A DNA stretch of 64,000 nucleotides, taken from the IMG/VR virus record IMGVR_UViG_3300035208_006730. One strand, given 5' to 3'. Made by a program: the position numbers and the translations under genes. Positions 34,619 to 54,018 of the stretch are shown one piece after another. The DNA comes from a virus. Taxonomy: Duplodnaviria > Caudoviricetes. The notes below the pieces were generated by a model. The model had not been told where the DNA came from. It saw nothing but the letters and a program-made list of their open reading frames with translations, and made no database searches. How positions within the stretch are numbered: position 1 is the stretch's first letter; each line of letters starts with the position of its first letter.

Positions 34619-37600
34619 CTATTTTAAAATTGGACCCGTATATCCTTGATTTCTATCATTCAAAAGATATCCACCAAAATCTCCCTTGATCCAATTCCAG
34701 TTCTCAGGAGAATATTCGTATGCAGCATTATCAAGAGCTTTAGAAAGACCAGAAGCTCCTTCAGAAATAAACTTGAGACCATCCCAAAGCATCCCACCTT
34801 GAGTGTACTTAGAGGTTAATCCGTGAATAAGAGGTTTATCTTTATAAATCAGTGGATCAATTCTAAACGGATGTGCGTACTGAGAAGATGCAACAATTTT
34901 TCTCATTAACCATTTTAATGGTCCTCCTAAAACGATGTCTAATGCTTTCAAGGGACCTGCAACTGCAGTCTTACCAACAGTACCAGTAGCATTAATTAAA
35001 CCCTCGCCCTCTTTAACAAGTGCTCTAGCTCGAGTAACTTGATCCTTTAGCCAGTCACCAGGCATATATTCAGCTACAACTCTTCCCATCAATTCGTCAG
35101 TTGAGATAGTAGCGTTCTGATTAATGTGGATTACTGCATTAGGAGTAATCTCTGAGATGAATCCATTAACCTCATTAAATTTATGGATCACAGATTCTAC
35201 TTCTATTGGTCCATACATGTTGGTGTGATCATCGGCTATAAAGACTATATCGAAAGGTTTTATGGCAGGATTACCGATAATAACTATTGATCCTTGATAG
35301 GATTTTTTCAAAAGCCTCCAAAGAAGTCCGATAGCGTACCTTTTCGCCTGAGACTTTCCGATACAATTAGGGTAGGTCATAAACAATTCTCTGGTATCTT
35401 CATCGGAAATGTCTTCATCGGCTTTCATCGTTAGAATTGCGGGTTCTCGAGAAACAAGTCTTCCAAACTCTAGATCTTTGGTTTGTTCATCACGTAGCCA
35501 TGTTGTATCTGAATACTGAACTGCAACGGCATTAAAGACGCCCTTGGTTCTTGAAGAAATATTGTTAGCTATAATGTCGTATTTGTCTGTGATTAGATAG
35601 TAGTTTCTAAATGGTTTAACGATATCCATCTCTTCAGCTAGCGTGTTTTTAAGAGTAGTAAAGAAGGCGACCTTATCGACCTTTTGGAATTCTGGATCTT
35701 GCAAAGATTTGGTTAATCCTTCTATTTCCGAATTAGACATTGTAGTATTGCGCGATAGAATTGATTTTAACTTCTCTTCTGTAAGATCATCTGTTGGATT
35801 GCCACTTTTAATATCGTCGACAAGTCCCGCCAAGTCTTTCGCAAAGTTAGCTTCATTGGGATTAGGGTCTCTTGAATAATAAAGTTGATTTGGCATTCCA
35901 AAATACATTGTCATTCTAGCGCCCCAGGAAGCGGTGTACGGAACTGCTTGAGCGATGAATCCTGGATGACGAATACACATCTCTTGGAATACGTCCCAAA
36001 TGGTAGTACGAAATAGTTTATAAGGATCAGATGACTTGAACATTGAAATACAAGTTGATCCACCTGGGGCGAAAATATTTAAATCCTCAGGTTTTTCTGT
36101 GAATTGGAATTTTTGGGTAAGAGTGTCATAAAAATCTCCCATACCCTTTTGACCTGGTTCCCAGCGTCCAAAGTGAACGAGTTCTGGCTCATTCATTAGT
36201 TCATGGAGCAAGGGTCCAGTATCTCCAGTCTTTGTAAAAAAACCACCATAATTAACTGAGTCCTCAATCCCCTTCATTCTTGTTATTAGTTCAGTACCAT
36301 AACTTTGAGCAACAATATTTAGTAGATCATCTGATTCTGAAAATTGCACCTCTGTAATAACGCCGTGAAAATTATTGTTTAAAAATAAAGGATTATTGGA
36401 ATATCCAAGACACAGTTTTACATGTATCCCTGGCTTAACAACAAGAGATATTAACGGATTTTCTTTCTTAGAGTCAACATCTCGAGCTTTCGTTTTTCCC
36501 TCGTTTTGAGCAATTGGATTATCGAATGGTTGGAGTTTACCTGTCTCAGTATTCATTACATTCTGAAACTTTCTATTAGATAGAATTCCAGAGATATTTG
36601 TCAGTTCAAGAACTATGATATCGGCTGCAACGTTCTGATTCATAACGTGCGTAATATCTTTAACTGAAGCGTAACTAAAGAAGTCATCAAAACCATATTC
36701 TCTACGCTCACCATAATCTGACTCGATGAAGTAGAGCTTGAACGTTGGCCATGCTTTCGCAAGACCTCTACAAAATCCTTTATTCATATTTCTGGTATGT
36801 TGACGGATTAAGCGAGGAACAAGTCCTGTTGTTTCTGGAGAATTGACTGAAGTTAGTTTGTCGCAGATTCGGACGTTACCCAGAATCTCTAATGGGGATT
36901 GATGCGCTCCATCCTTTAGGATCATAAAGTGAAGATGAACTCCAGTTGAAATTCCAGAACTTCCCATGATAGCAATTGGCTCTCCACCTCGAACAAACGG
37001 TTGGATACCCCTTGCAAGTGAAGCTTTCCAATTGTCGAGATAATACCCGTCATCTTTAAGGTGGGAGTAACTCGATGTCCATCCATTACCATGATCAATC
37101 TTAATATATCCAACGGGAATTTTTATTCCTTGATCTCGACGACGAAGAACTTCTGCAGCGGAATAAGTCTCTCCAATATTACAAGCTACAATTTTTCCTG
37201 GAGCAGCTGCTTCAATCACAGTCTCAAGTCCACTACTCCCAATATCGATACCGTCATGTTCCCAGTTTTCTTTCCTCGCTTTGTCTAACTGACGTTGAGC
37301 ATCAGCTTCGGAGATAATTCCTTGTTGTGTTTTTTGAGATAGCGCTGCAATCTTTTGTTCAATAAATGGATTTGGACGTGACCCATATGGAGACGTAATA
37401 TTGTGATTCTCGAAAGCATACACAGCAGGAACTGGCCAACACCATTGCTGTGGACCAGTTTCCATTGAACTTTCAGTTCCAAAGGTTTCTCCAGCTAAAT
37501 AGATTTGACCGTCTTCGAGAAGAGCTTTACCTCCTAGAATGTGTTTGATTCTTTTGCTTTCATCTTTGAGTCGATCTGGGAGTTTCTGTTTTCCGCCAGA

Positions 37601-40543
37601 ACGTCCAGAACAGTTCCAATACTGAGATAAAGGGCTACCATCTTTAGTTTTGGTGAAATCGAGAACTGATGTTTCGGGAAGATAATCGTCATTGCCTTGT
37701 GAAGACGTAAATACATCACTGATAATAGTTCCTTCTGGAAATTCATCAGGAACACAAAGCTTAGCCTGTTCTTCAATTGCTTGTTTTATTCCAGATGCTC
37801 CTTCTGGAATCTTGGGTTCTTTCCCCTGTTCTTTTAGTTTTTGTTTTGCAGCCTCAATATCTCCCGCGTCTGCAACTTCATTTGAACTGTTTACATCTCC
37901 AGATGTCCAACGATAGATCTCTCTTGTCCAGTCCTTTTTCTGCGTTTTAAACTTCTTTTGACGTTGGGCATTTTCGTTACTAAGTTTATCTAGTAATGTG
38001 TCATGCGCTGTTTTGTATTCTTCGAGATGAGTTTTTACGACACTTTTTATTTCTTCAATTTTTGTTTCATCAAGTTTGGTTCCATCTGATATTTCATTGA
38101 TTAGGTAGAATGATGGATCGATTAACGATTGTGGAGATATGCCCGCAGTTAAAAAGGAACCTTTATTCCAAGAATTGAAGAGGATGTCATCAAATTTTTT
38201 ATTACCATAATCTCCAAGAAGAGATAAAACCTCTTTCATTGGAAAATCAGGATAGGCACACGAAGTTCCCGACTGTTTAGACTTTTCGTACTCTTGGCGA
38301 AGAACATCAGAGAACAATGGATCTCGAAGAATTCCATCGGCAACGGCGTTATCGATAATCTCTTTGAGACGTTTTTCATAAACAGTGAATGACTCTTTAA
38401 TTATCGAAGTCTTATTTGCTCCAGCAAAACGAGAAATGTCGTTCAGTTCACTAAGAAATGAAGCTCCCAATTGCTTTAAAACCCCTGCCTCAGAATTCTT
38501 TATCCCCTGAAGTTCTTGTTGTCTAGCATTGGCGGTATCAAGACGAGTTTTATTGTCCGCTTCTTTTCCTGCTTCTGCTAATTGAGAATAGTCTTGAAGC
38601 TCTTGATAGATACTATCGAGCTCTTGGCTTTTGTTCCGAATCTGGTTTTCTAGATCTGCTCTTCTGTCAGGAGTCGCGTTCTGTAGTTGAGATTTTAACT
38701 GACTTAAATCATTCTTTACGGCATCTTGTCTTTGCGAAAGAGAATAGGCTTTTGCGTCTTTTTCTTGATTAACTACAGACAGAGTTTTAGGTTGAACGAT
38801 ACCTTGAGATATTCTGGAGTCCCAAAGATCTTTTCTAACCTTTTCTATGCCTGGCCATTCGGAAACATTTGTTCCCATTATTTCAGATAAAGAAGTTTTG
38901 TCATACAATCCACCTGGATACCAAAGAACAGAATGGAGATAGGTTGAAAGTTCTGTCATTAAGACAGAGACTTCTGACATCACTTTAAACTGAACGGCAT
39001 TTCCTCTAGACTCCATCTCTGCTTTCGAAAGAACTGGACTATACAGAACGGATGTAATACCATAATTTGATGCAGCATATAAGGTTCCCTGTCCCTCAAG
39101 ATAGATAGGGATAAGAGAACGATGAGAAATAGTTTTGCCTAAAGGTAACCCAACAATGGATTGAATTAGTTTTGTTGCAATTTTTTTGCTACGTTCCCAG
39201 TCGCTTGTTGCAAACTCTCTTCCGAATTTTTGTTCTAAATCTTCGTACCGATTAGAAGACACTAGAAGGTTAATCGCAAATGTATCTATTTGTCCTGGTA
39301 TTGTATTCAGGGTAAATTGTTCGACAATAGTCTCATCAACTCCGCAGAGATTAATGATGTCGTTTCCTATCATTAAGGATCTAATACCAGCAGGAATGTC
39401 CTTGAATTCAATCTCCTGCCGTTCTATCGCAGTGTACATCTGATGGATTTTTGCGCTCGCTTCTTGTCCATTTCCTATCATTTGAATTTGTACGGCAACA
39501 TCTGCACTTCCAATATGCTGATAGGTTGCGTACTGTTGTCCAATAAGAGGAATAGTTGCAAGGCGATGAGAGAATGAAATGTCTAGTCCAGTTGTTGTAA
39601 TAGAGTTCGCTTTTGTTGATAGTCGGGTAATGCGCGAGAAAAGAGGTTTTCCATGATAGATCATCTCTTTTCCATTCAGATTCACAGGTTCCCATTCCAA
39701 ACCTTTATAGGTCACAGTTCTATTTTTCTCGTCCTTCATCACAACATCAGAAAATACATCGAAATACATTGAGGTAGTAAAACCAAGAAGTTGATTAACC
39801 GATGTGATTTGTTCTGAGGTGAGAACGGAAATGCGCTTTGAAGTCTCACTTGCCCCTAATTTAAGTAACTCACTTTTAGCTTTCGAATCTGCATCTGACT
39901 TTATTTGCTTAAACTTTTCAACAGTTTCTTGTGGCGATAAAACGTTTCCTTGTTCGTTTTCTATCACAGGAGCAAGAAATTCACGAAAAGCAAAAGTAAT
40001 GTTGTCTGAAAGTTCTCCCTGAATGGCCCTGTATTTGCCTCGATTAATTTCAGCTTCAGTTAGGATATTCCAGGCTAAAGAATTTTGGGGAAGGTTCGTA
40101 CTTTTACGACCAAAGACTTCTACTCGATACTGCCAAATATCTGTGTATGGCTTAAAGTTGAACCAAACAAAATCGAAGAGAACTTTAATGACGTTAACGT
40201 CAGTATCATTCTTTCTAATATTGATGTGCTTGCACGCGAGAATTATTGGGTCTGTCGTATCGCCATGATAGATAGTATTCCGAATTAACTGATTTTCAAC
40301 GTAGCAAAACGGGACAACTCTGAGTTGTGCGACTATTCTTCGGAGTTTTTCCCAGCCTTCTTGGTCAACAAAACTTGCTTCAACTCTCACCGATAAAATT
40401 GTATGTCCGCTTTTTATTTTAACTGAGTTTCTAGTCCTCAGAGTGTACCATTCATGGTTAAAGGCTTGTTCTGAAATGCCTATTGCCTGAGGCGGGACTG
40501 AAAACCCGACATCATTTAAGACAAAACTACCGGAATCTTCCAT
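34619..40543 (-). CDS. Large baseplate hub-like tail protein with M23 peptidoglycan endopeptidase domain
   Basis: M23 motifs ITSPYGSR, HDGIDIG, YSHL, STGVHLHF (about 36890-37440); hub-like LGYSNNP...FHGVITEV and GSIVIIGNPAIKPFD...VESVIHKF....GFISEITP. Confidence 0.8.
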   Translation of the reverse strand: MEDSGSFVLNDVGFSVPPQAIGISEQAFNHEWYTLRTRNSVKIKSGHTILSVRVEASFVDQEGWEKLRRIVAQLRVVPFCYVENQLIRNTIYHGDTTDPIILACKHINIRKNDTDVNVIKVLFDFVWFNFKPYTDIWQYRVEVFGRKSTNLPQNSLAWNILTEAEINRGKYRAIQGELSDNITFAFREFLAPVIENEQGNVLSPQETVEKFKQIKSDADSKAKSELLKLGASETSKRISVLTSEQITSVNQLLGFTTSMYFDVFSDVVMKDEKNRTVTYKGLEWEPVNLNGKEMIYHGKPLFSRITRLSTKANSITTTGLDISFSHRLATIPLIGQQYATYQHIGSADVAVQIQMIGNGQEASAKIHQMYTAIERQEIEFKDIPAGIRSLMIGNDIINLCGVDETIVEQFTLNTIPGQIDTFAINLLVSSNRYEDLEQKFGREFATSDWERSKKIATKLIQSIVGLPLGKTISHRSLIPIYLEGQGTLYAASNYGITSVLYSPVLSKAEMESRGNAVQFKVMSEVSVLMTELSTYLHSVLWYPGGLYDKTSLSEIMGTNVSEWPGIEKVRKDLWDSRISQGIVQPKTLSVVNQEKDAKAYSLSQRQDAVKNDLSQLKSQLQNATPDRRADLENQIRNKSQELDSIYQELQDYSQLAEAGKEADNKTRLDTANARQQELQGIKNSEAGVLKQLGASFLSELNDISRFAGANKTSIIKESFTVYEKRLKEIIDNAVADGILRDPLFSDVLRQEYEKSKQSGTSCAYPDFPMKEVLSLLGDYGNKKFDDILFNSWNKGSFLTAGISPQSLIDPSFYLINEISDGTKLDETKIEEIKSVVKTHLEEYKTAHDTLLDKLSNENAQRQKKFKTQKKDWTREIYRWTSGDVNSSNEVADAGDIEAAKQKLKEQGKEPKIPEGASGIKQAIEEQAKLCVPDEFPEGTIISDVFTSSQGNDDYLPETSVLDFTKTKDGSPLSQYWNCSGRSGGKQKLPDRLKDESKRIKHILGGKALLEDGQIYLAGETFGTESSMETGPQQWCWPVPAVYAFENHNITSPYGSRPNPFIEQKIAALSQKTQQGIISEADAQRQLDKARKENWEHDGIDIGSSGLETVIEAAAPGKIVACNIGETYSAAEVLRRRDQGIKIPVGYIKIDHGNGWTSSYSHLKDDGYYLDNWKASLARGIQPFVRGGEPIAIMGSSGISTGVHLHFMILKDGAHQSPLEILGNVRICDKLTSVNSPETTGLVPRLIRQHTRNMNKGFCRGLAKAWPTFKLYFIESDYGERREYGFDDFFSYASVKDITHVMNQNVAADIIVLELTNISGILSNRKFQNVMNTETGKLQPFDNPIAQNEGKTKARDVDSKKENPLISLVVKPGIHVKLCLGYSNNPLFLNNNFHGVITEVQFSESDDLLNIVAQSYGTELITRMKGIEDSVNYGGFFTKTGDTGPLLHELMNEPELVHFGRWEPGQKGMGDFYDTLTQKFQFTEKPEDLNIFAPGGSTCISMFKSSDPYKLFRTTIWDVFQEMCIRHPGFIAQAVPYTASWGARMTMYFGMPNQLYYSRDPNPNEANFAKDLAGLVDDIKSGNPTDDLTEEKLKSILSRNTTMSNSEIEGLTKSLQDPEFQKVDKVAFFTTLKNTLAEEMDIVKPFRNYYLITDKYDIIANNISSRTKGVFNAVAVQYSDTTWLRDEQTKDLEFGRLVSREPAILTMKADEDISDEDTRELFMTYPNCIGKSQAKRYAIGLLWRLLKKSYQGSIVIIGNPAIKPFDIVFIADDHTNMYGPIEVESVIHKFNEVNGFISEITPNAVIHINQNATISTDELMGRVVAEYMPGDWLKDQVTRARALVKEGEGLINATGTVGKTAVAGPLKALDIVLGGPLKWLMRKIVASSQYAHPFRIDPLIYKDKPLIHGLTSKYTQGGMLWDGLKFISEGASGLSKALDNAAYEYSPENWNWIKGDFGGYLLNDRNQGYTGPILK

Positions 40544-40551
40544 GATGACCT

Positions 40552-43500
40552 CTAGAAAAGTTTATTAAGTATGGTGTCCATATTGAGAGTCGATAGGTTA
40601 TCTCTCACGGTTATTGTTGAGTTATTCACGTTTCCCACTATCATCTTCATTGCGCCTGCAAGTCCAGCTGGATCGTTATCACTATCTTTTGTGTACAATC
40701 GAGCATTTACATTATACCCTCTATTTGATCCTATCATGGCTGTTGGTGACATCAAATGAGAAGGAGCCGAAGGACTACCTAAAGATGAAGTAGAAGTTTC
40801 TGTATCTCCCTGCCGAAGAGAAGCTTCGCTAGTATGGCGAACTGGTTTCGAATAGAGAGATGCGGCATCACCTGAAGAGCGCATTCCAACTAGACTTTGA
40901 GGTGTATTTGCCATAGCCGCAAGACCAAGAGCAATGCCAGCTCCAATCGCTATTGGTTTTGCGTATTTTAATGCTCGTTTACCGTCAGCTATTGAAATAT
41001 TACTCGCCGCCATTTCTAAGCGAGAGAGCATGCCCATTGTTCCCTCGCCCTCTGTCATTCTTGCCATAGACTTTACGTAGTCTTTTATGCCTGCAGCTGA
41101 TGGAGAGATTTTGGATTTGCCAGCCATTTTTCTAAATTCTTCAAGGCGACCAGAACTTTTGAAAGAGTCCCGAGAACCCGCTATTGTCCTTGCCGTTTCT
41201 TCAAGATTAATTCCAGAAACAGAAGAGCCCATATCGACGCCTAACCTTGATTTCGCTTCTCTTGCGAATCTTTCTGACACTGGCATATCTTGACCAAGAG
41301 CAGCTTCAATGTCTGAACCAAAATTTTTACCTAATAATCCTCTAAAATTTTCAGCTATTTCAGAAGACGTACCAGAAGAGATCGCTCTTTTAGTCGCTTC
41401 AAGACTTTGGCGCAGTTGGTCGGTTTTTCCAACTATGTCACCTGCGGCCATATGCTTGGCAGAAATGGGGAGTTGTTCCATTAACTCGAGCATTGAAAGT
41501 GCTGTAGACTTGTTAGCATTTCCAGAAGCAGATACGGAAGCCTTAGCTTCGCTCAATACTGTAGACAATTGTCCAATAAAACTTTTTGTTGCCTCATCTT
41601 TTCTAAGGGCAACTTTCGTTAAATCTGCAAGGGTAAACTGATTCATTTCAGCTACTGCAGATTGGGCCTTTGGCTTAATTGTTTGTACTCGAATTGCGTG
41701 CTCGAGGTAGGCACGAAGACTTGTAGCGTCCCAATACTTCGACGCTTGTTCTGCAGTCTGTCCCTTCAGCAGCATCAGACCCGCAAAGTCACCATCGAAG
41801 TCTGCAGCCATGCCTGTAACTGCAGAAATATTGATTCCATCTATTTTAATTTCTGGCATGACCATTACGGCTTCTTTTGTATTGGTCGCAAGACGATGGA
41901 TATTAACTGGAACAGTTGAGTAGGGACCAATGTTAGGATGTCTCCAAGCTACTCCAGAAACAGTTCCTTTTGTCTTCCACTGCTCCTTTAGTTCGGCCAA
42001 TTCCTCAGGAGAACCTTCCATTTCAGCGGACATCTTGTTAAACCAAAAATCAGAAATTCCCACTCCAAATGGATCTTGAATTGTTTCATCCCCAATTTTT
42101 GATGCCAGTTGAAGAAAGCGACTTCCAGTTATTTTTTGATTTGGATTAATTCTTCCACGATAAAATCCGCCAACACCCTTTCCAAAAGGTGCCTGTTCAG
42201 CCTGAATGTTTTGTGCAGCTTCCCAGTATTGTTTTTCGAAAGCTTCAGAGGTGATATCACCTGACTCTAATCCAGAAAGCCCTCTAGCTAAATTTTGATA
42301 GGTTCTATAGAGCTTTCCTCTAAAACCTCCCTGCATTTTTATCGCATCAATATCTGGTACGTAAATATTCTTTGCTCCAGTAATCCAACCCCCACCGCCC
42401 TCAACAAATTCAGCAAAAGCTTTCGAACTAAAATTCGAACTAGCTTCAAATCGACGATCACCTCTTCCTGGCATACCACCAGCAAAAGAAGAAAGAGACT
42501 TTAATAGCTCTTTAGATACAACGTTTTGTTCTCCTGGACCTGATAGGCGCGATGAAAATTCCGAAACAAGTTCTTCGCCTAATGGTCCAAGGTGTCCCTG
42601 TCCAAGCATTTCAATTGTTCTTGGCTCTATAGTCGCTCTGCGGTTGTATCCAAATCGCTCACTTCTCGGACCACCGTGAGTTGCCCAAATAACGCCTTTC
42701 GCTGTACCAGTTTCAAAAGCTCTAGTTTCTCTTTGAGTAAGCGGATTATCAAGATACTTCCCAACATCTTCTTTGTAGTTTTGACCCAACACAGTTGGAA
42801 CTGCACCAAATACTTCTCCTAATTCCTGTTTAGTCAGACCCTCTGAACGAGCGGTTTTAACTAATTCAGCAACTGTTTGAGCGTGGATATATCTACCTTG
42901 ATTCTGTTCGGTAATAGTTTTTGTTAAAGAGTTAAAGTAGTTCCTTGGGTCATTAATTCCAGAACTCATTCCTCGCTTTTTTCTTGCTTCAATGGCTTCC
43001 CAGAGTCGAGTTGCCATCTGTTGGTAATGTAGATGTGGCCCCTTTTTTAATGCATCTATGTCTGCAATTGCCTGTACTCCCTTACCTGCAAGTCCAATAA
43101 TTTTTGATCCCTCATCGAAAACCATACTCCCCTTTAGTCCAAAGATCTTTTCTTGGGCTCTCAAGGGTAACTCTTCTTCTGTCTGTAGGATGATGTTGGA
43201 ATCTTGAATCGTCTGCCCAAGAATTTTTAGATTGCGTCCTGCAGTAATTGGATTTCCCATTGGATCGTTTCCAATAAATTCCCCTTTACCAACAGACATT
43301 GTCCCAGAGGTATCAAGTCCTTTAATCACATTTGTCGCAAGACTTTCTAGTCTCATTTCAGCTTCTCGATATCCCTTACCGTAGGCCTTCATTTGTTTGG
43401 CGACAATTATTTCTCCATCTCCCATGAGCCGTCCAAATGTCTGCTGTCTCTGCATAAATGCTGTTCGCATAAAGAAAGCGTTTGAACTGCCAAGAAGATC

Positions 43501-44889
43501 TCCTGAGGGACCATAAACTCCAAACATATTCAAATGAGATTCCGGCAAAGACCACAGATACTTATTCTGAATGGCATCAAGGTTCTTTCCAAGAGAAGGT
43601 TCCCATGCGCGCATACCAAAACGTTTTACGGCTTGACCAGGAGCTCGAGCTTCAGGAACACTTTCTGCTCCCATATAAAGTTGACGTACATCGTATGTAG
43701 CTAAAGCTCCTCTAGTTTTTGATGTTCCAGAAATACCTCCAGAAAAATACTTGGAACCAAGACCTCCCTCAATCTCTGGAATTGAAGCAGCTTCAGTCGC
43801 CCGCACAGGCTTTCCGTCTAGACTGGAAAATAAAGTCGTTTGAGAACGGATATTGACATAACCTCGTAACTGAGAAGAATAACTTTCAGGTGAAGTCAGA
43901 GGGATATTTGTTAGACGTTCTCTGACTTCTCGAGTCAATTGTTTTCCGATTCCTCTTTTTTCTCTTCCAGACAGTTCGTTCAACCTGCCATAATAACTCC
44001 CTTTGAATCTTTCTATAATGTATTGTTCTGGCAAAAGGTCCTGAGCTACAACGGTTCCAGTACCAGGGTCAATAACGGAAAATTTACTCGCAATGTATCG
44101 AGACGAAAGGTCCTTACCAAGAACTACAGAACCACCTGAAGAGATTGGAACATTAAACGAAACACCACGATCTGCGAAGGTAAATCGATAAGAGCCATGA
44201 CCCGTTGCAGCAAGATCGGATCTTGTTTGATGAAAGATACGAAAATCCTTATTCTTTTCTAAAAATTCTTTAGCGTATCCCTGAATAGCTGAAGGCAGAC
44301 GGTTGTACGCCTGAGGATTAATTAACTGGGATTTAATACTATTTGGAGATCTAACGCCTTGTGTGGCGAGCATTTCTTGGGCCATATTAACTGCGAATTG
44401 ATGTGGATTTTCTATTGGAGTATTCGCAATATCTGAAAGAACTTTACTATAGGTCCTTGAAAATATAGGTTTATTTCTTGAGAACGACTTAATAAATTGA
44501 TTGCGGATACCAAGAGGTAGCATCTTAAGTTTGTCTCTAAATAAATTCTCCATAGAGCCAATAGGATTTTCAAATTGACTTGGATCTAGTTCTCCTCGAA
44601 AATTTTCAGGTATATTATCCAATGCTTTTTGCCATGCCCAAAGAATACTTTCGGCAGATCCAGAAAGAGCTCTGGTTGCAAAATTTGAAACTTTATCTCC
44701 CATCAGCGGACCAGCAGAAGGGATAGTTCCTGGATAACGACCCATATTCGCTAATGAATCAAGAACATTAGATTTCGGATTCATTCTTGTTATTATATTT
44801 TGACCCGCGATTACTCCTCCAATTACCACAGGAGAAAGCATCGCAAGATCCATAAAGCCTAGACCATTAGTTCCATTATTATCTGCCAT
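40552..44889 (-). CDS. Putative single-subunit two-barrel (DPBB) DNA-dependent RNA polymerase, probably virion-associated
   Basis: GDGEIIV (D491), EKIFGLKG (K581/K586), GGFYRG..KITGSR, GVGIS, WRHPNIG (R983), GMAADFDGD (D1030-D1034, nt 41788-41802), IGQLS, EQLPISAKH, in the expected order. Confidence 0.8.
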   Translation of the reverse strand: MADNNGTNGLGFMDLAMLSPVVIGGVIAGQNIITRMNPKSNVLDSLANMGRYPGTIPSAGPLMGDKVSNFATRALSGSAESILWAWQKALDNIPENFRGELDPSQFENPIGSMENLFRDKLKMLPLGIRNQFIKSFSRNKPIFSRTYSKVLSDIANTPIENPHQFAVNMAQEMLATQGVRSPNSIKSQLINPQAYNRLPSAIQGYAKEFLEKNKDFRIFHQTRSDLAATGHGSYRFTFADRGVSFNVPISSGGSVVLGKDLSSRYIASKFSVIDPGTGTVVAQDLLPEQYIIERFKGSYYGRLNELSGREKRGIGKQLTREVRERLTNIPLTSPESYSSQLRGYVNIRSQTTLFSSLDGKPVRATEAASIPEIEGGLGSKYFSGGISGTSKTRGALATYDVRQLYMGAESVPEARAPGQAVKRFGMRAWEPSLGKNLDAIQNKYLWSLPESHLNMFGVYGPSGDLLGSSNAFFMRTAFMQRQQTFGRLMGDGEIIVAKQMKAYGKGYREAEMRLESLATNVIKGLDTSGTMSVGKGEFIGNDPMGNPITAGRNLKILGQTIQDSNIILQTEEELPLRAQEKIFGLKGSMVFDEGSKIIGLAGKGVQAIADIDALKKGPHLHYQQMATRLWEAIEARKKRGMSSGINDPRNYFNSLTKTITEQNQGRYIHAQTVAELVKTARSEGLTKQELGEVFGAVPTVLGQNYKEDVGKYLDNPLTQRETRAFETGTAKGVIWATHGGPRSERFGYNRRATIEPRTIEMLGQGHLGPLGEELVSEFSSRLSGPGEQNVVSKELLKSLSSFAGGMPGRGDRRFEASSNFSSKAFAEFVEGGGGWITGAKNIYVPDIDAIKMQGGFRGKLYRTYQNLARGLSGLESGDITSEAFEKQYWEAAQNIQAEQAPFGKGVGGFYRGRINPNQKITGSRFLQLASKIGDETIQDPFGVGISDFWFNKMSAEMEGSPEELAELKEQWKTKGTVSGVAWRHPNIGPYSTVPVNIHRLATNTKEAVMVMPEIKIDGINISAVTGMAADFDGDFAGLMLLKGQTAEQASKYWDATSLRAYLEHAIRVQTIKPKAQSAVAEMNQFTLADLTKVALRKDEATKSFIGQLSTVLSEAKASVSASGNANKSTALSMLELMEQLPISAKHMAAGDIVGKTDQLRQSLEATKRAISSGTSSEIAENFRGLLGKNFGSDIEAALGQDMPVSERFAREAKSRLGVDMGSSVSGINLEETARTIAGSRDSFKSSGRLEEFRKMAGKSKISPSAAGIKDYVKSMARMTEGEGTMGMLSRLEMAASNISIADGKRALKYAKPIAIGAGIALGLAAMANTPQSLVGMRSSGDAASLYSKPVRHTSEASLRQGDTETSTSSLGSPSAPSHLMSPTAMIGSNRGYNVNARLYTKDSDNDPAGLAGAMKMIVGNVNNSTITVRDNLSTLNMDTILNKLF

Positions 44890-47800
44890 TGAAAGCGTCC
44901 CTTAATCCATCTCTTACGTCATCAAATCTATCCACTTCTAATTCTACACTGGATGAGTTCATTCCTAATAGGGAAAGTTGCTGAGTCATTGTAAAATTTC
45001 CCTGAAGATTATCTCTCTCCATCAAAGAATTCATCTGATCTCTAATCTCTCCTTCTGAATACTGTTGTCCAATCTCTTGAACGCTTTGATTATTTACCCA
45101 AGGCTTGTATCTTGATGCCATTTCTCTATCTGGCCAAAGATTAAAATCATGAAATTCTAATCCCTGTTTTTGCACGTATTTCAGCTTCAAATCATCAAGA
45201 TCAGCCTGTGGATGGAAGCCTACCCAGTCAGGCCCAGGCATCGATTTCTCTTTCAATTGCTTTGGAACTAAGTAGGTTCTACGATACCAATCCGCATAAC
45301 TCTCTCCAGTAACTCTGGAACCGTAATACTCCTGACGAAGTTCGTCATTTACTGGAAATCCAGCAGATGTGGCCAAAGATTCAATTTCAGCTCCAGCAAT
45401 TAAAGCGTCCTCATTGTCTGTTTTCTTTGCCGCTTCAGAAAATCTTCGTTGCCATTGAGCGATGTAAATTGGACGCATTTGTTCGGGAACCATCTGAAGA
45501 ATCTTTTCTCGAGCTTCAGGAGAAGTCTCCATTCTAAATGCGTCAAAATAAGACCTTTCTCTGGCTGGTATTGCGGCCATCAAGTCCTTGAAATTCATAG
45601 TGTATGGATTAATACCAGTTAATGTTTGCTTACTTGATTTAACGTATTCATCGGCCAAATCAAGATCGCCTGCTTCAAATGCTCGAGTTGCTAACGTTCT
45701 GAACTTAGCGTATTTTAGCGCATCGAATTGTTCGTCAATCTCTCTTTGTTCTTGAATCCGATCAGGGATTCCATTCCATCCAAAGGCATGAGCCGTAGAA
45801 GAAGCAAATGGGGAAAGAAAGTTTTGAATAGGTTTATTCCAAAATTTGTTGGAAGTACCATAAATCATATCTTTTTCATAATCTTCAATAGCTGTGCGCG
45901 CATGCACGAACTTTGCAAATGGAGCCATTGGAGTTAACTGTTCAAGAGAAGTCTCTGCTCCATGGCTAATCCATTCCCAATAGCCACCAAATAGAGATCC
46001 AATAATACCTCTATCTTTTTTACCTGAAGCGTTTTCCTTATTAATCTCGGATAATACTTTTGATTCTAATGAGTTGCCAGTTTCAAATGGTTCAAGAACT
46101 TCGTACTCTGAAAAACTTTTTTTCTCTTTCTTTGCTTTTATTTGTTCGATAGTTCTGTTAAAAAGTTCCTCTTCGTAGTCCGTCCAATTTCCAGATGACC
46201 GCTGCATTCTAATGCCAGCTGCAGCTGCTTTGTATTTGGAAGAATATGGGGCTACATCGGCAAGAATTTTCCAGATATGAATGAGAGGATAATCTTCTGG
46301 ATCTAGACCAGCAAGCTCTGGATAACGTTGTTCGTAGCCAAGACCAGGGAGACGCACTTCCCCGAGATCAATCTTTGCGAATGGATCACCAGAACGAAAG
46401 TCTTCCGATAGATCTCCTGTATCAGGCATCCATTGTGGCATCTGGTTTCTAATAGGATTGTATGTCTGAATGCTTTTTCTTTTACTTGGATAAAGACGCC
46501 GATACCATTCGCTTAATCCTAAGGCGCCTCCAAATCCCTCTTCCCAGAAAGATTTTCTGGCACTAGTAATTTCTCCTGCAGCTTCCAATTGGCGTTGATC
46601 TGCAAAGAAATCTGGAGAACCAGTTAACTCTTCCTTGAGTGAAGAAAATAAGAATCCAGGAAGACCTACCATCTCACTATTATGGACTAGACAATCTTCT
46701 GCATAATAAATATGAGTATTTTCTACTTCAAGATCGTAAAGATCTATTGATTCCATATAAATATCTTTAATATTAGTTATTTTTTTGAAGATGAAATAAT
46801 AATTATTGTCTTCTTTTATGAAGTTTCTAGTAGTATTTGTTTCGCCTACAGCAATTGGACGCGATAATTTAAAACCAGATTTACCTAATTGTCTTAATTT
46901 TTGAATATTTGTTCTAAAAAGTCCAAGTCCATAATTTTTATATTTTTTTACTTGTCCATTTTTTTTGATTGTGGAGTAACCAGATGTATTTGAAACCAAT
47001 ATACCCAATTGATTAAAAATATAGGTTAATTGTTTCTGCAGAGTTAAACTAGATTGATTACATTCTAATTCCTTTTCTCGAATATGGAAATCGCCATCTA
47101 TAAAACCATTAATTAAACCAAGAAGAAACTCTCTATTCGAAGATAATAGAGATGCATGGATTATTTTATGGCTTGGTAATCCGATCAAAGTTCTGAATAA
47201 TTGACTTATGGCCGTACTGCATATACTTGTCTCTACTCCGTTCCCTATAATTCCATCTTTTTCCTTTCTCCACCATGTAGTTGTCCCATTATAATTAAAT
47301 AACGTTTTCATTGATTCGAATAACTTTTTATAATGAGTTTCAGTTTCAGAGATTTCTGCAGCATAACTAATTTGGGTGTTACTTGGAGACCCTTCCGCTA
47401 AAGTATATCCGCATAACCAACCTAAATCCCAAGTAAGTTCGAGCCTAATTGGAAGACTTCCTGCGTTCTTATCTAAATAGTCGCATTCATAATTATTATT
47501 TGGTCGTTTTACTAAAGTTCCCTTATTGTTTAAATATTCACAACCCTTTCTTAGAAAAGACTTTTTAATTCTTCTATAAATGGTATTTCCTTGGATTCCA
47601 AAATTATTCATATCCAAAATATCAGGTAAATATAGGAATTTTTTTTCGTTAATTATCTTTGGAATTATTTCTACTAGAAAATCGCCCTTATCCAGATTCT
47701 TAACGGAAAGCCATTCAGGTTTGTAATTTAAGTAATGAGGATGAATACATCTTTTACAGTGATCTCCATCATGACTTCCATGAAGACTGCAATTATAGTC

Positions 47801-50800
47801 CTTTGCGCTACAATATTTAGTTTTTAGCGCAAAAACTTTATGATTTTCTGTTACCTTTAACTTTTGGTAAGTATTAGTAAGAGATATTTCCTTTAGGACA
47901 TCTTTCTGGATATTTTTTCTTTTAAATACTTTGGTTACTTTTTCGAAAGAACTGTGTCCCCATACAAACTCCTTTTCAACTATATTCCTTATTTCTTTGT
48001 ATGAACTATCTGCCATACGAATCCGCGTATCTTCAGTAAAACACATACGATACATCTGTTCATTAATCGTTTGACTAAGAGAGTAGGGAGATATAGCTTC
48101 GCCTTCTGGAATTTGGCCTAATTCTTCTGAAAATGTTTGTCCATATCCAAGAGGGTTAGATAACTGTTGTCCATTTTGCATCCATTCAGAGGTATGCATT
48201 TTCATTTCAGGTTTAATTACTTGCCCAATAGTAGCTCCAAGTAGAGGACCAATCAAAGGGACCTCAGAAAATGCGGGACTTGAATTATGGACAATACATG
48301 TCGTTAAAAACGATTGTTCTTTTTCTACTGTGATATCAAAAACATCTCCTTCATATGGTATTTCCTTAATTTGTCTAACCGGAATATAGAAGTTGTCATT
48401 ATAAATAAGTCCCTTTCTATCTCCAGTGGTTTTAATGCATTTAACTTCTTCTTCGAATAAAGAAAAGTTTTCAAAGCCGAATCCAGTTATGCTTAAGTAG
48501 TAATGAACATTTTTCGGAATTTCACGTCCATTAATAAGAGCTTTTTTCCAGTTCTTTTTAGGAACTGCCTTAGTGAATGATACGGGAATACCAATACTTA
48601 AAAGAAGTAATCTTAACTGATTTGTTAGATAAGATGAAGCAGATGTAAATGTGATTTCATTTTTCTTTTTTGTAGAGCCATCTCCTCGAATTAATCCCTT
48701 AGCAAAAGCCTGTTTCAATCTTACTGGCCAACTTAAATAGTCTAGAGAAAATCCCTTTTGAGGAGCATGTTTTTTTTCAAAAAGACCATCTAAGATTTCA
48801 CTTAAAATTCTAGAATACACTCTTAATTGAACACCGTTCTCACTTTTCTGACTAACACTTGTATTTGCTTGAAATTTCTTCATAACTATTTTCTGTATAT
48901 CGGCGATATATGTAGGTATCTCATTTGAATTAAAAGCAAATCCAACTTGATCTTTGCTCGTAAAACCTTCTGCTAAGAATAAGCCGAACAAATATGCCAT
49001 ATCTTCGTCTATTTCTAGGTATCTATCTAGAAATTTTTTATAGCCGTTTCTTTTTCTTAAATCCCATAAAAGAGAATATTTAACTAAAAATGTCTTACTA
49101 GCATCTTTTATTGAAAGATTTGAGTAAAAAGCATCTACTACATTTTGAGTCGCTCTTCTATCGTAAATAATCTTATCTTTTATATAGGCACGTCCTGTTA
49201 ATATAGCTAAATCTATAATTGGATTTTTTTCTAAAGAAGTAATTTTTCTTGCTGGCACAACAACAAAATCATGTCTTTTAATGTCTTTTGCTGGAATCCA
49301 TTCAAGACATCCTGACTTTATCGCTTTTATTTTTTCTCTATTTCTATCTCCTCTTTTTTGATAAGTTAAATGGTTTTTTAGACATAAAATTTTATGTTGA
49401 GGAGTTACTAAAAGTTTTCTGTTATCGGCGGCTATTGTAATTTCTATGAGCTTTCCTTCTGTACATTTTCTGCTTGTTTTTTCGATAACAGTTGTCCACT
49501 CATTATCTCTATTTAAAACCTGATCGCCCCTTTGAATATGAGATATGTTTTTAAAACCTTCAATTGTATAAACTGGCGTATCAGGATGAAAACACATTGG
49601 GTATGGCCGATCCCAGTAATGAAATTTTTCTATATCGTAAGTAAAATTCTCTTTCCATGTTTTGGTAAACTCGGAAATATTGTCTGCGCCTTCTCCCCAT
49701 ATTTGTTTATCTCTTGCTCTCCAAACCATTCTTGGAAACCAGTGAGGAGCGTAATAAGCTTCATTAGAACCTTCCCACTTGGAGTTGCCCATCTCCCAAA
49801 AAGCGCCCTTACCTACAGGAACTTCTTCTTCTCCTGAGTAGATTCTACGGAGTTTATCGGGACGATCTGATGGAATAAGGGCTCCTGGGATAAAGGGAGA
49901 AACAATGGCTGCACCAATGAAAGCCCCAAGACCAATAGCTAATTTTTTAGGAGTGAGATTTTTAAAGATACCGCCACGCGAAATTAAATTTTTGCCTAAT
50001 TTTCCAAACCAAGATCCTCCAAACTCACCAACTGTTTCCATTGCGGCAGCTCTAGCTGCCTCGAGATTCATTCCTGCTCTTTGATTCTTAAAAGTTTGAT
50101 AGACCCGTTCGCCGTAGGTGCTAACGGAACCAACTATCCATCCAGCTAGAGGGAATCCGGCAAGTGCTGAAAGATTTGTGCTTCCAGGAGCTGCTTCTTC
50201 TTGCCATTCTCGATATCGGTGAAGCCCCATAGTTTCTGCAGTAGAAGAAATGGAAAGATTTCCTTGAGCCCAAAGAGAGGCAATACCTGTCGTAATACCT
50301 TCATTAAAAACTGTCTTATCGAAAAGTAGATTGTTTCTTACTAATCGATCTGCTTCAGAATAGAGAAGATAGCCAAGAGGCGCTACAGCTCCCCATTTGA
50401 GAGATAGCCGACCAAGAGTAGAAAGAGCTCCACCAGGTTTAACTCCCAACCCATACTTAAAAAATTCTTTACCAAATGGGAGCCTTTTCCCTAAACTTTC
50501 TAAATATTTATATCCTCTGCCAATTACTGGAAGATCAGAAGGCATTTGAAGAAGACGGTTGTATCGTTCAACTAATTCTGAAGCAATACCACTAACTTGT
50601 CGTTTCGCAGCTTGAAGTTTAGAGTGTCCACCGATAACCTGAACCCCGAAACTGGGATGGAGTTGTTCTTCTCCTGAACGGGAAAAGACTTCTGTTAATT
50701 TGGCTCCTTCCCAATTCGTCCCGTAATCATCTACTCCCAAGGCTCTTGCATATCCGGCTGAGTAGTGAGACGATGTTTTGAAAATATCTGTAGCCGTTGT

Positions 50801-51250
50801 GTTGAGAACTACCGATGCATGCTCTAGAGCTATATCCTGGGAGCTGCCCCAAAATAATTTATTTCCAGAAAAAGACAAGCCAGTTGAACCTATCTTCTCA
50901 GGTTTACTGCCGATGAGTTTCGAGAGATAGGTTAATTGTTCAGGGTTATTACTTAGAAACTCTGGACTAATGAATATTGGACTTTTCGCTTCAGATGTAA
51001 ATTGACTAAAGAAATTCGATAATTGAAACGTTCGGAGAAACCCACCAGGTGAATACTCTTCTGCAGTCCGAATGGCTCCTACGAACCGGTCATATCCCAG
51101 TGAGTTACCAAGTTTGGCTTTGCCGAGTAAATGGAGTCCAGTTACTCCACCACCAATAAGGGCCGTATTTGTTAGAAGATTAGATTGAGACGGAAGCTGA
51201 TCTTCGTCTGACCAAAGAGGTTGAGGGACAAAATCTAAAAATGTCGCCAT
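44879..51250 (-). CDS. Large tape-measure-position / ejection-type protein with two inteins (spliced product about 1231 aa)
   Basis: Directly after the chaperone; Gly/Ala-rich helical sequence with hydrophobic segments (e.g. KLAIGLGAFIGAAIVSPFIPGALI); two Hint+LAGLIDADG insertions. Confidence 0.65.
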   Translation of the reverse strand: MATFLDFVPQPLWSDEDQLPSQSNLLTNTALIGGGVTGLHLLGKAKLGNSLGYDRFVGAIRTAEEYSPGGFLRTFQLSNFFSQFTSEAKSPIFISPEFLSNNPEQLTYLSKLIGSKPEKIGSTGLSFSGNKLFWGSSQDIALEHASVVLNTTATDIFKTSSHYSAGYARALGVDDYGTNWEGAKLTEVFSRSGEEQLHPSFGVQVIGGHSKLQAAKRQVSGIASELVERYNRLLQMPSDLPVIGRGYKYLESLGKRLPFGKEFFKYGLGVKPGGALSTLGRLSLKWGAVAPLGYLLYSEADRLVRNNLLFDKTVFNEGITTGIASLWAQGNLSISSTAETMGLHRYREWQEEAAPGSTNLSALAGFPLAGWIVGSVSTYGERVYQTFKNQRAGMNLEAARAAAMETVGEFGGSWFGKLGKNLISRGGIFKNLTPKKLAIGLGAFIGAAIVSPFIPGALIPSDRPDKLRRIYSGEEEVPVGKGAFWEMGNSKWEGSNEAYYAPHWFPRMVWRARDKQIWGEGADNISEFTKTWKENFTYDIEKFHYWDRPYPMCFHPDTPVYTIEGFKNISHIQRGDQVLNRDNEWTTVIEKTSRKCTEGKLIEITIAADNRKLLVTPQHKILCLKNHLTYQKRGDRNREKIKAIKSGCLEWIPAKDIKRHDFVVVPARKITSLEKNPIIDLAILTGRAYIKDKIIYDRRATQNVVDAFYSNLSIKDASKTFLVKYSLLWDLRKRNGYKKFLDRYLEIDEDMAYLFGLFLAEGFTSKDQVGFAFNSNEIPTYIADIQKIVMKKFQANTSVSQKSENGVQLRVYSRILSEILDGLFEKKHAPQKGFSLDYLSWPVRLKQAFAKGLIRGDGSTKKKNEITFTSASSYLTNQLRLLLLSIGIPVSFTKAVPKKNWKKALINGREIPKNVHYYLSITGFGFENFSLFEEEVKCIKTTGDRKGLIYNDNFYIPVRQIKEIPYEGDVFDITVEKEQSFLTTCIVHNSSPAFSEVPLIGPLLGATIGQVIKPEMKMHTSEWMQNGQQLSNPLGYGQTFSEELGQIPEGEAISPYSLSQTINEQMYRMCFTEDTRIRMADSSYKEIRNIVEKEFVWGHSSFEKVTKVFKRKNIQKDVLKEISLTNTYQKLKVTENHKVFALKTKYCSAKDYNCSLHGSHDGDHCKRCIHPHYLNYKPEWLSVKNLDKGDFLVEIIPKIINEKKFLYLPDILDMNNFGIQGNTIYRRIKKSFLRKGCEYLNNKGTLVKRPNNNYECDYLDKNAGSLPIRLELTWDLGWLCGYTLAEGSPSNTQISYAAEISETETHYKKLFESMKTLFNYNGTTTWWRKEKDGIIGNGVETSICSTAISQLFRTLIGLPSHKIIHASLLSSNREFLLGLINGFIDGDFHIREKELECNQSSLTLQKQLTYIFNQLGILVSNTSGYSTIKKNGQVKKYKNYGLGLFRTNIQKLRQLGKSGFKLSRPIAVGETNTTRNFIKEDNNYYFIFKKITNIKDIYMESIDLYDLEVENTHIYYAEDCLVHNSEMVGLPGFLFSSLKEELTGSPDFFADQRQLEAAGEITSARKSFWEEGFGGALGLSEWYRRLYPSKRKSIQTYNPIRNQMPQWMPDTGDLSEDFRSGDPFAKIDLGEVRLPGLGYEQRYPELAGLDPEDYPLIHIWKILADVAPYSSKYKAAAAGIRMQRSSGNWTDYEEELFNRTIEQIKAKKEKKSFSEYEVLEPFETGNSLESKVLSEINKENASGKKDRGIIGSLFGGYWEWISHGAETSLEQLTPMAPFAKFVHARTAIEDYEKDMIYGTSNKFWNKPIQNFLSPFASSTAHAFGWNGIPDRIQEQREIDEQFDALKYAKFRTLATRAFEAGDLDLADEYVKSSKQTLTGINPYTMNFKDLMAAIPARERSYFDAFRMETSPEAREKILQMVPEQMRPIYIAQWQRRFSEAAKKTDNEDALIAGAEIESLATSAGFPVNDELRQEYYGSRVTGESYADWYRRTYLVPKQLKEKSMPGPDWVGFHPQADLDDLKLKYVQKQGLEFHDFNLWPDREMASRYKPWVNNQSVQEIGQQYSEGEIRDQMNSLMERDNLQGNFTMTQQLSLLGMNSSSVELEVDRFDDVRDGLRDAFNGR
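46679..48043 (-). mobile_element. Intein 2 (455 aa) with LAGLIDADG endonuclease
   Basis: CFTEDTRI start; VTENHKV; LCGYTLAEG and LINGFIDGD; LYDLEVE...CLVHN, +1 Ser. Confidence 0.93.
48284..49594 (-). mobile_element. Intein 1 (437 aa) with LAGLIDADG endonuclease
   Basis: CFHPDTPV start; VTPQHKI; LFGLFLAEG and FAKGLIRGDG; VFDITVE...CIVHN, +1 Ser. Confidence 0.93.
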
Positions 51251-51257
51251 TCACTCG

Positions 51258-52196
51258 TTACCTCTTTTTTGGTTTCTTTTGTCCTTTCAAAAACTTCTGC
51301 TCTATTATAGCATTATTCTTTGATTCTTTGCGCTGCTGAGCTAGTAGTGTCTTTTGAAAGTTTTTCTCGTTTTCAACTTTTCTTGTCTCTGCATCTTTGA
51401 TTCGATTATCAAATTGATCTTTGAAATCTTGTGGCGTAATCTTGCCTTTTTCCTTTTGAATGTCTAAGTATTTTCCAAAGATCTGTTGAGCTTCCTTTAT
51501 CATCTGCTGCCTCAGTCTGTCGTTCTCGCCTTCAGTTTCTTCTCTTGGCAATCCTTCTGATAACTTTCCAGTTTCTTCTTGTGTGACAACGAATTCATTA
51601 GATTGTTGTGGAGCATGTTGTCTCTCGTACTCTTCTTTAAGCTTTTCTGGTGCAATTTTCTGCTTAGCGGGAATATTTTTGCCGGGAATAACCAAATTAA
51701 TAGGCGATTTCATTATCCCAGCTTCTATCAATTTCTTTTCGGCCAAAGCCAATCTTCGCAGAAATACATCAATGCTCATTCCGTAAACATCTTCGGGCTT
51801 GTATGCGGGGAACGCCTGCAGAATAGTAATAACTAATTGTTCCCAAATTGAAGTGTCGACGAATGCGCGATGTGCTGCAAGAACTTCGTTAAAAATATTT
51901 ACATCACCAATAATAGAATGGTCTAAAATCGCAGAAGAAACCGTACTAACAGATCCAGCCCTACCATCATCGATATTCTTAACGAGATATTCATCTGTTA
52001 CACATTTGGTGTAAATTTTGTCTTCAGTATCTAATGTTGGTATCTCGCCAGTTATGAGAGAAAAGTCGTCTTGAGCTAGCTCGAGATATTCCCCTATAGT
52101 TAATTTACGCCAAGGGATAACCGTTTCATCAGGAAATACGGAGATATGGTCGGCCTTTTTATGTATACTCTTTAGTTTTTTTAATTCTTCGTTCAC
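51258..52196 (-). CDS. Putative tail assembly chaperone
   Basis: IPWRKLTIGEY...AGSVSTVS...AFPAYKPEDVYGM; position between tube paralogues and the tape-measure-like gene. Confidence 0.55.
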   Translation of the reverse strand: MNEELKKLKSIHKKADHISVFPDETVIPWRKLTIGEYLELAQDDFSLITGEIPTLDTEDKIYTKCVTDEYLVKNIDDGRAGSVSTVSSAILDHSIIGDVNIFNEVLAAHRAFVDTSIWEQLVITILQAFPAYKPEDVYGMSIDVFLRRLALAEKKLIEAGIMKSPINLVIPGKNIPAKQKIAPEKLKEEYERQHAPQQSNEFVVTQEETGKLSEGLPREETEGENDRLRQQMIKEAQQIFGKYLDIQKEKGKITPQDFKDQFDNRIKDAETRKVENEKNFQKTLLAQQRKESKNNAIIEQKFLKGQKKPKKR

Positions 52197-53960: not shown

Positions 53961-53989
53961 TTCAACCTCGAGGAAAAAGTTCCTGACTA

Positions 53990-54018
53990 ATTATACTGAA
54001 TTTTAGTGAACTTAGGAA
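53990..54018 (-). promoter_or_regulatory. Putative promoter TTCCTA-N17-TATAAT
   Basis: Fills the gap after the tail tube stop codon; perfect -10 with 17-nt spacer. Confidence 0.55.

Follow-up and report, generated by a model that had tools for sequence, protein, structure and literature searches.

In the 64,000-nucleotide stretch of DNA analysed here (the window; one strand of IMG/VR record IMGVR_UViG_3300035208_006730; Duplodnaviria, Caudoviricetes), a 1445-codon open reading frame (ORF; P0001) occupies positions 40552-44889 of the minus strand, from ATG to TAG, with the stop codon at 40552-40554. We propose that its product is a single-chain two-barrel polymerase, most likely a DNA-dependent RNA polymerase (RNAP), built into the protein that fills the tape-measure slot of a contractile tail, and we put the probability of this explanation as a whole at about 0.72. 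Results computed here underlie the proposal: the fold, the conservation of the catalytic residues, a gene position that is fixed among virion genes, and a C-terminus homologous to a virion protein. The source record, an IMG/VR contig, has a length of 158,879 bp, a completeness of about 83% and a G+C content of 37.7%; identical DNA is present in landfill and groundwater metagenomes of four studies, and none of the public runs listed with it was of RNA.

From the N-terminus to the C-terminus, the protein consists of a hydrophobic segment; about 400 residues of no assigned fold; a beta-type barrel; a helical connector of about 310 residues; a beta-prime-type barrel with the R-x-P and D-x-D-x-D motifs; a long helix and the EQxPISxKH motif; and a C-terminal module. 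These features map to the window as follows (conservation counts refer to the alignment of 94 relatives described below; DPBB, double-psi beta-barrel).

40552..44889, minus strand: the complete gene for the predicted single-chain two-barrel RNAP in the tape-measure slot, 1445 residues (ORF call, fold and synteny)
44791..44865, minus strand: N-terminal hydrophobic segment, residues 9-33 (Kyte-Doolittle maximum 1.90 over 19 residues; G24 kept in 80 of 94 relatives)
43060..43521, minus strand: beta-type barrel region (DPBB-B), approximately residues 457-610, where the lysine pair and the acidic G-[ED]-G motif at 491 lie (strand-rich in the model)
43129..43149, minus strand: KIFGLKG, in which K581 and K586 are the putative two basic residues of the beta-type barrel (conservation)
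42619..42627, minus strand: E755-P756-R757 motif in the connector between the barrels (R757 invariant; E and P each in 91 of 94)
41770..42123, minus strand: beta-prime-type barrel (DPBB-A), residues 923-1040 (structural alignment to DPBBs and to Rpb1/beta-prime)
41935..41943, minus strand: R983-H984-P985, the R-x-P motif upstream of the metal loop (R in 92 and P in 94 of 94)
41788..41802, minus strand: D1030-F-D1032-G-D1034, candidate Mg-binding triad (each Asp in 94 of 94; the residues between them vary)
41527..41631, minus strand: bridge-helix candidate, a 35-residue helix, residues 1087-1121, after the second barrel (model helix 688-722; the Rpb1/beta-prime alignments run through it)
41452..41478, minus strand: EQLPISAKH, residues 1138-1146, putative trigger loop (E1138 and K1145 in 94 and H1146 in 85 of 94)
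40555..41142, minus strand: C-terminal module, residues 1250-1445 (homologous to the C-terminus of gp146 of phage 0305phi8-36)

All the motifs from which the original prediction had read a polymerase hidden in the tail module were found in the 1445-residue translation at the residue numbers that it gave: GDGEIIV at 490-496, KIFGLKG at 581-587, R983 in WRHPNIG, D1030-1034 in GMAADFDGD, and EQLPISAKH at 1138-1146. The translation also contains VQAIADI, GGFYRG..KITGSR, GVGIS and IGQLS. The original prediction had named no strand for the gene, which is on the minus strand. According to the hydrophobicity scan and the alignment, residues 1308-1330 are weakly hydrophobic and conserved.

An AlphaFold2 model of residues 400-1200, built from an alignment of 84 sequences, reached a pLDDT of 89.7 and a pTM of 0.88. 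Foldseek comparison of the model with the PDB yielded, as the best 50 matches, exclusively RNAP beta/Rpb2 (second-largest-subunit) chains. In a VIA-align comparison against 48,161 representative chains, of which the best 50 rows were considered, the first half of the model (residues 400-750 of the protein) matched chain C of the non-virion RNAP (nvRNAP) of phage AR9 with a Z-score of 13.9, the plastid-encoded polymerase with Z 13.0, chain C of the phiKZ nvRNAP with Z 12.8, and Pol I A135 with Z 12.0, and the second half (protein residues 803-1200, model residues 404-801) matched Rpb1, beta-prime and RpoA' chains with Z 8.1-9.6. Single-chain RNAPs aligned over both halves: QDE-1 with Z 12.4 (363 residues aligned), P74 gp62 with Z 11.3 and maize RDR2 with Z 10.8 and, more weakly, P23-45 gp96 with Z 9.2 (310-318 aligned) and phi14:2 gp66 with Z 6.6 (404 aligned). 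Stand-alone double-psi barrels, namely those of CDC48-N and VAT-N and designed DPBBs, aligned to approximately model residues 523-654, with Z 7-8.2 and endpoints that differ from row to row; this region is the DxDxD barrel. PolD and YonO structures were absent from the best 50 VIA-align rows, which does not exclude kinship with them.

Searches of databases of predicted structures gave the same picture. All ten rows from the ESM Atlas were RNAP clusters, the nearest being phage proteins that fuse Rpb2_6 and Rpb1_2 (TM 0.52-0.53 over 511-526 residues); a feature search of the Atlas gave no usable match. The best viral matches in BFVD were unannotated or 'minor tail' proteins, two proteins of Acinetobacter phage ME3 and proteins of Microcystis phages, all of which ranked above the RNAPs of poxviruses and giant viruses. 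At a finer level, K581 and K586, the candidate counterparts of the beta lysines, lie on adjacent strands of the first barrel in the model, and the 35-residue helix 1087-1121 and EQxPISxKH, candidates for the bridge helix and the trigger loop, follow the second barrel in a region covered by Rpb1 alignments that reach model residue 801. On the strength of the AlphaFold2, Foldseek, VIA-align, Atlas and BFVD results, the two-barrel core is established as far as prediction allows, and we regard the polymerase fold modelled in residues 400-1200 as nearly certain. The original prediction had claimed a single-chain two-barrel RNAP and named AlphaFold modelling with Foldseek as a way to check it; the model has a two-barrel core whose strong matches are all RNAPs, and the claim is borne out by the model, the structural comparisons and the conservation of the catalytic residues.

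The protein had no match in Pfam (TPR below threshold only), PHROGs or NCBIfam, and no PDB sequence match was obtained either by phmmer or with the family profile. tblastn and megablast against 50,697 phage records produced no match to the gene, and a word-indexed protein search retrieved one relative only. When 1.84 billion cluster representatives were searched exhaustively with HMMER, by contrast, 123 relatives (at 50% clustering) were identified, 66 of them with E < 1e-30. Full-length members of the family span 1355-1592 residues; given that the longest has 1592, no fused forms were seen among the 123 representatives.

Conservation was counted in a MAFFT (FFT-NS-2) alignment of 94 full-length relatives, which are 18-31% identical to the 1445-residue protein. 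Residues D1030, D1032, D1034, P985, R757, P845, G540, E1138 and K1145 are invariant (94/94). Nearly invariant are R983 (92/94), K581 (89/94), K586 (K in 90 and R in 4) and H1146 (85/94), and position 491 is acidic in 76 of the 94 (E in 63, D in 13). The combination of [RK]-x-P and DxDxD that served as a filter in PMC10770324 (Supplementary Data 4) is present here. The original prediction had taken DFDGD with an upstream R-x-P to be the catalytic signature of beta-prime. The three aspartates and P985 proved invariant and R983 nearly so, while the DFDGD wording is particular to this member; the family consensus of the metal loop is G-D-K-D-A-D, and the agreement of this one sequence with the beta-prime wording is, as judged from the alignment, coincidental. 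The five-residue spacing of the two lysines, which had been read as marking the RNA-dependent RNA polymerase type, did not hold up, as the spacing is 5 here and mostly 6 in the family (K-x-F-x(2-3)-K). The overall pattern, judged across the aligned sequences, is beyond chance and is the one to be expected of catalysis, not of a scaffold. We consider it likely that the protein is catalytically active.

The RNAP-like gene shares 11 nt with the 2123-residue gene upstream, and 8 nt separate its end from the start codon (ATG) of the 1974-residue gene downstream. The RNAP-like gene belongs to a long co-oriented late operon in which junctions are either overlapping or 8 nt, with the sheath, tube and tube paralogues upstream and the baseplate wedge downstream. 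The presence of the sheath gene implies a contractile tail. The neighbouring genes are the following.

54718..56649, minus strand: tail sheath gene (phrog_16991, E 4.9e-70)
51258..52196, minus strand: 312-residue gene preceding the three giant genes (present in each related locus whose flank extends there)
44879..51250, minus strand: upstream 2123-residue gene, gp145-like, homologue of ME3_35 and 0305phi8-36 gp145 (BLASTP)
34619..40543, minus strand: downstream 1974-residue gene, baseplate-hub homologue with an M23 peptidase (Pfam PF01551; BLASTP to ME3_37 and gp147)
31460..32713, minus strand: baseplate wedge (gpJ-like) gene that closes the conserved block (phrog_6, E 6.8e-33; Baseplate_J in relatives)

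Synteny was compared across about 15 distinct loci, comprising the contigs of five family members and 12 IMG/VR loci, for which a narrower alignment was used as the query. Wherever the contig extends, the order is fixed: the 312-residue gene, a gene of about 1200-1350 residues, the polymerase, a gene of about 1700-2040 residues, three small genes, and Baseplate_J. The gene of about 1700-2040 residues, in the hub position, encodes an M23 or SLT cell-wall hydrolase domain.

In BLASTP searches, the upstream protein matched virion proteins of cultured jumbo myoviruses, namely ME3_35 (E 2.7e-48), gp145 of 0305phi8-36 (E 1.7e-15), Bacillus phage WH1 gp096 and a Moorella phage protein, and the downstream protein matched the annotated baseplate hubs ME3_37 (1e-25) and gp147 (5e-14). 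In 0305phi8-36 and ME3, the genes are arranged in the order chaperonins, gp145/ME3_35, gp146/ME3_36, hub. Comparison of the gene order with that of Bacillus phage 0305phi8-36 and of Acinetobacter phage ME3 thus places the RNAP-like gene in the tape-measure slot itself. The original prediction, which had it as a separate gene between a tape-measure-like gene and the hub, has to be revised on this point: the gene falls in the gp146/ME3_36 slot, and the upstream giant is the gp145 homologue. Both gp145 and gp146 of 0305phi8-36 are recorded as virion proteins by mass spectrometry, and gp146 is the assigned tape measure. A profile of the C-terminal 196 residues matched the C-terminus of gp146 with 32 bits (E 1.8e-9), compared to 3.1 bits for the best of 250 shuffles. 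A profile of the N-terminal 400 residues gave no match in these comparisons. With hhalign, the family alignment yielded nothing against gp146 and, against ME3_36, a result that was no more than suggestive (P 0.0018, probability 15%).

ME3_36 (1603 residues, annotated 'hypothetical protein', KU935715.1 33172-37983) contains R-E-P followed, after about 40 residues, by DHDQD, and also KFFSVGSK. One of the BFVD matches, entered as part two of an ME3 protein, has 802 residues, half of 1603; this entry is presumably ME3_36. A second ME3 protein, of 798 residues, is also a structural match to the model. With these motifs in the tape-measure slot, ME3_36 is a candidate, from a cultured phage, for an enzyme of this kind.

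With respect to the tape-measure function, position and C-terminal homology agree; the core of 800 residues has a globular, not an extended, shape. The ruler could be the gp145-like neighbour, which is equally long and mostly helical in a low-confidence model; the AlphaFold2 model of a gp145-like homologue, mostly helical with a pLDDT of 54.8, was too low in confidence for a fold search.

In the 159-kb record, no other RNAP signature was detected with PF05183, PF00940, PF00623, sigma70 region 2, or a regular expression for R-x-P followed by DxDxD in a large ORF. PF05183 matched neither the RNAP-like protein, nor the genome, nor the relatives. A complete relative, IMGVR_UViG_3300021603_000001, of 188,653 bp with terminal repeats had no PF05183 match, no PF00623 match and, apart from one ORF of 550 residues, no match to the regular expression; PF00940 and sigma factors were not searched there. 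The phage encodes a DnaE-type polymerase, a primase and a ribonucleotide reductase of its own, so that a replicative role for the RNAP-like enzyme is unnecessary.

That a polymerase gene lies within the late structural operon is most simply accounted for if the enzyme is packaged for use in the next infection, and delivery with the virion appears plausible and reasonably probable. Under this scheme, the RNAP-like protein would be produced late, when the tail genes are expressed, and incorporated into the tail together with the gp145-like protein and the peptidoglycan-hydrolase hub. Contraction of the sheath would expel it ahead of the DNA, its hydrophobic ends would hold the polymerase at the membrane, and the refolded core would transcribe the first DNA to enter, making early expression independent of the host RNA polymerase; transcription by the ejected polymerase might also help to pull the genome in. 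Activity, a DNA template, presence in the virion, ejection and the role in early transcription are what we infer from the computed results. An equivalent scheme of ejection and early transcription has been proposed for P23-45 gp96 (PMC10770324).

Several observations weigh against this explanation. The fold does not separate DNA-templated from RNA-templated synthesis. The folded core of about 90 kDa, which includes the connector of about 310 residues between the barrels, would be too large for the lumen of the tube, so that the protein would have to be stored unfolded or elsewhere. By motif inspection and with the core profile, gp146 has neither DxDxD nor a detectable polymerase core, and its assignment as the tape measure is itself tentative, being based mainly on tail length (PMC2147016). 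The core profile scored only 4.2 bits against ME3_36, and its scores against both ME3_36 and gp146 lay within the range of shuffled sequences. A k-mer search of 33 intergenic regions in the plus-strand, presumably early, blocks found no shared promoter-like word above background. Finally, a 550-residue ORF in the tail region of the complete relative also fits the loose R-x-P..DxDxD expression; this match is probably due to chance.

The polymerase could also be real but unpackaged, being made late and acting within the infected cell on late genes, in a primase-like capacity, or on RNA templates. Its presence in the virion is deduced from context, and QDE-1, aligned with Z 12.4, has both DNA- and RNA-templated activity, the fold thus leaving the template unfixed. 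An enzyme for late genes, however, would not be encoded solely in the late tail operon with translationally coupled junctions, and the fixed position between virion proteins in all loci examined, the homology of the C-terminus to a mass-spectrometry-verified virion protein of the same slot and the terminal hydrophobic segments all argue against an unpackaged enzyme, which we consider unlikely. Conversely, the protein might have a structural role in the tail, as the tape measure or in the tail lumen, and keep an RNAP-derived fold that no longer polymerises. The tape-measure slot, the narrow length range of 1355-1592 residues, as for a ruler, and a C-terminal module in common with gp146, itself without a polymerase core, fit such a protein. 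The three aspartates, the proline of R-x-P, the lysine pair and other charged residues are, however, invariant or nearly so in 94 sequences at 18-31% identity, and there seems to be little chance that polymerisation was lost. A two-barrel DNA polymerase resembling PolD, or another nucleotidyl transferase, is very improbable: PolD has the same two-barrel core (PMC10770324) and the model does not show sugar selectivity, but the strong structural matches are all RNA polymerases, and a DnaE-type replicative polymerase and a primase are encoded by the phage itself.

The packaged RNAP that we favour can be extended into a broader and more tentative proposal. In a large and mostly uncultured branch of contractile-tailed phages resembling 0305phi8-36, probably including ME3, the tape-measure-slot protein might be the only RNAP of the phage, delivered unfolded through the tail tube and anchored at the membrane by its hydrophobic ends, where it would start transcription and draw in the genome of 160-190 kb; the polymerase core would have been gained or lost within the slot. 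If so, 0305phi8-36 would retain the C-terminal module only and would use its YonO-like early polymerase instead. We regard this extension as possible rather than probable.

Additional features of the tail module and of the genome were noted along the way. The gp145-like gene (44879-51250) contains two inteins with LAGLIDADG homing-endonuclease domains, at approximately residues 552-989 and 1071-1524, both at conserved sites; in relatives, the gene has 0, 1 or 2 insertions (proteins of 1627, 2085 and 2111 residues). Inteins within a tail structural protein are unusual. In one related locus (L010), the N-terminus of the gp145-like protein gives a short match to a TnpB-type zinc ribbon. The hub-like giant protein swaps its hydrolase domain at approximately residues 1070-1220, with M23 here and in most loci and an SLT transglycosylase in L013 and L014 (L013:14810-20887). 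In the relative that carries P0123, a protein with staphylococcal nuclease and GDSL-lipase domains is encoded directly after the polymerase gene. Three consecutive genes at 52193-54705 of the minus strand, encoding proteins of 228, 332 and 258 residues, all match phrog_9206, labelled 'major head protein'; this label looks wrong for the lineage because the genes stand where 0305phi8-36 and ME3 have the tube and its paralogues.

The phage is unusually rich in inteins and homing endonucleases outside the window as well; they are present in the DnaE polymerase, primase and portal, with two in the large terminase, and there is an HNH insertion in the ribonucleotide reductase (L004:839-5629, L005:888-4613, L006:10292-14554, L006:3860-7336, L002:6329-10189). 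In the head and packaging block, a protein of 1151 residues (positions 141237-144692 of the record, minus strand) combines staphylococcal-nuclease and protein-kinase-like domains. A transposase gene (145480-146649 of the record, minus strand; phrog_506, E 1e-111) is located at the boundary between the late operon and a plus-strand block.

Experiments have demonstrated virion two-barrel RNAPs in crAss-like phages and in a single siphovirus group (P23-45). The tape-measure-associated kind of virion RNAP is already known, although experimentally only from Thermus phage P23-45, where it was described in 2024 (PMC10770324). What is new here is the sequence family, the contractile-tail setting, the stand-alone gene for 1,445 residues with the peptidase encoded by the hub gene, and the connection with the tail module of 0305phi8-36 and ME3. 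No paper describing this protein family was found in the literature searched. Sequence searches of Pfam, PHROGs, NCBIfam and the PDB miss the family, so that such genes are labelled hypothetical, tape measure or minor tail protein. With 123 clusters at 50% identity from landfill, groundwater and other metagenomes, the strategy of a tail-borne RNAP seems to be present across a broad clade of contractile-tailed phages. The link to 0305phi8-36 and ME3 raises the question of how an enzyme of about 90 kDa is stored in the tail and passes through it, and ME3 gene 36 provides a cultured candidate in which the virion-RNAP model becomes testable. The family also offers comparative enzymology an RNAP core that is compact and self-contained.

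Among the known systems, the multisubunit RNAPs (the nvRNAPs of AR9 and phiKZ, bacterial beta/beta-prime, and Rpb2/Rpb1) have R-x-P, DxDxD and the lysine pair in common with the protein described here and are the best match for each half of the model. Unlike in these enzymes, both barrels are in one chain, the Pfam models of Rpb1 and Rpb2 miss the protein, and no further RNAP subunits were found in the genome of this phage (no PF00623 elsewhere). As in the QDE-1/RDR2/YonO type and in P74 gp62 and P23-45 gp64, a single chain carries the beta-type barrel before the beta-prime-type one, whereas PF05183 does not match and there are extra N- and C-terminal modules. Moreover, the gene lies in the tail module, in contrast to the YonO-like orf99 of 0305phi8-36, which is in the early region. 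Like the present gene, that of gp66 of phi14:2, a crAss-like phage (PDB 6VR4), encodes a single-chain two-barrel RNAP beside other giant genes, and gp66 is delivered with the virion; gp66 matches weakly (Z 6.6), is of another sequence family and comes from a podovirus-like virion without a tape-measure slot.

The slot that lies between the hub and the gp145-like gene is likewise that of gp146 and ME3_36, and gp146 has the C-terminal module in common with the protein here. Neither gp146 nor ME3_36 is annotated as a polymerase, ME3_36 shows no significant profile similarity, and PMC10770324 does not name ME3 or the Microcystis phages among the two-RNAP phages that it lists.

The closest parallel in arrangement is the tape-measure-fused virion RNAP gp96 of P23-45 (also in P74-26, G20c and TSP4; Chaban et al. 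2024, PMC10770324; PDB 8H2M/8H2N). For gp96, activity and presence in the virion have been demonstrated, whereas the protein described here is known from sequence and model; no sequence similarity was detected between the two, and the Z-score of 9.2 for gp96 is below those of several other RNAPs. In each of the two, the tape-measure position is filled by a polymerase that has two barrels in a single chain, a DxDxD loop and hydrophobic segments, and in both cases a peptidoglycan hydrolase is part of the same delivery set. They differ in how these components are distributed: gp96 joins RNAP, membrane and metallopeptidase domains in one chain of 5,002 residues, with a short disordered connector between the barrels, in a phage with a non-contractile 800-nm tail, whereas here a separate gene for 1,445 residues, with an inter-barrel connector of about 310 residues, serves a phage with a sheathed tail and is followed by the hub gene that carries the M23 peptidase.

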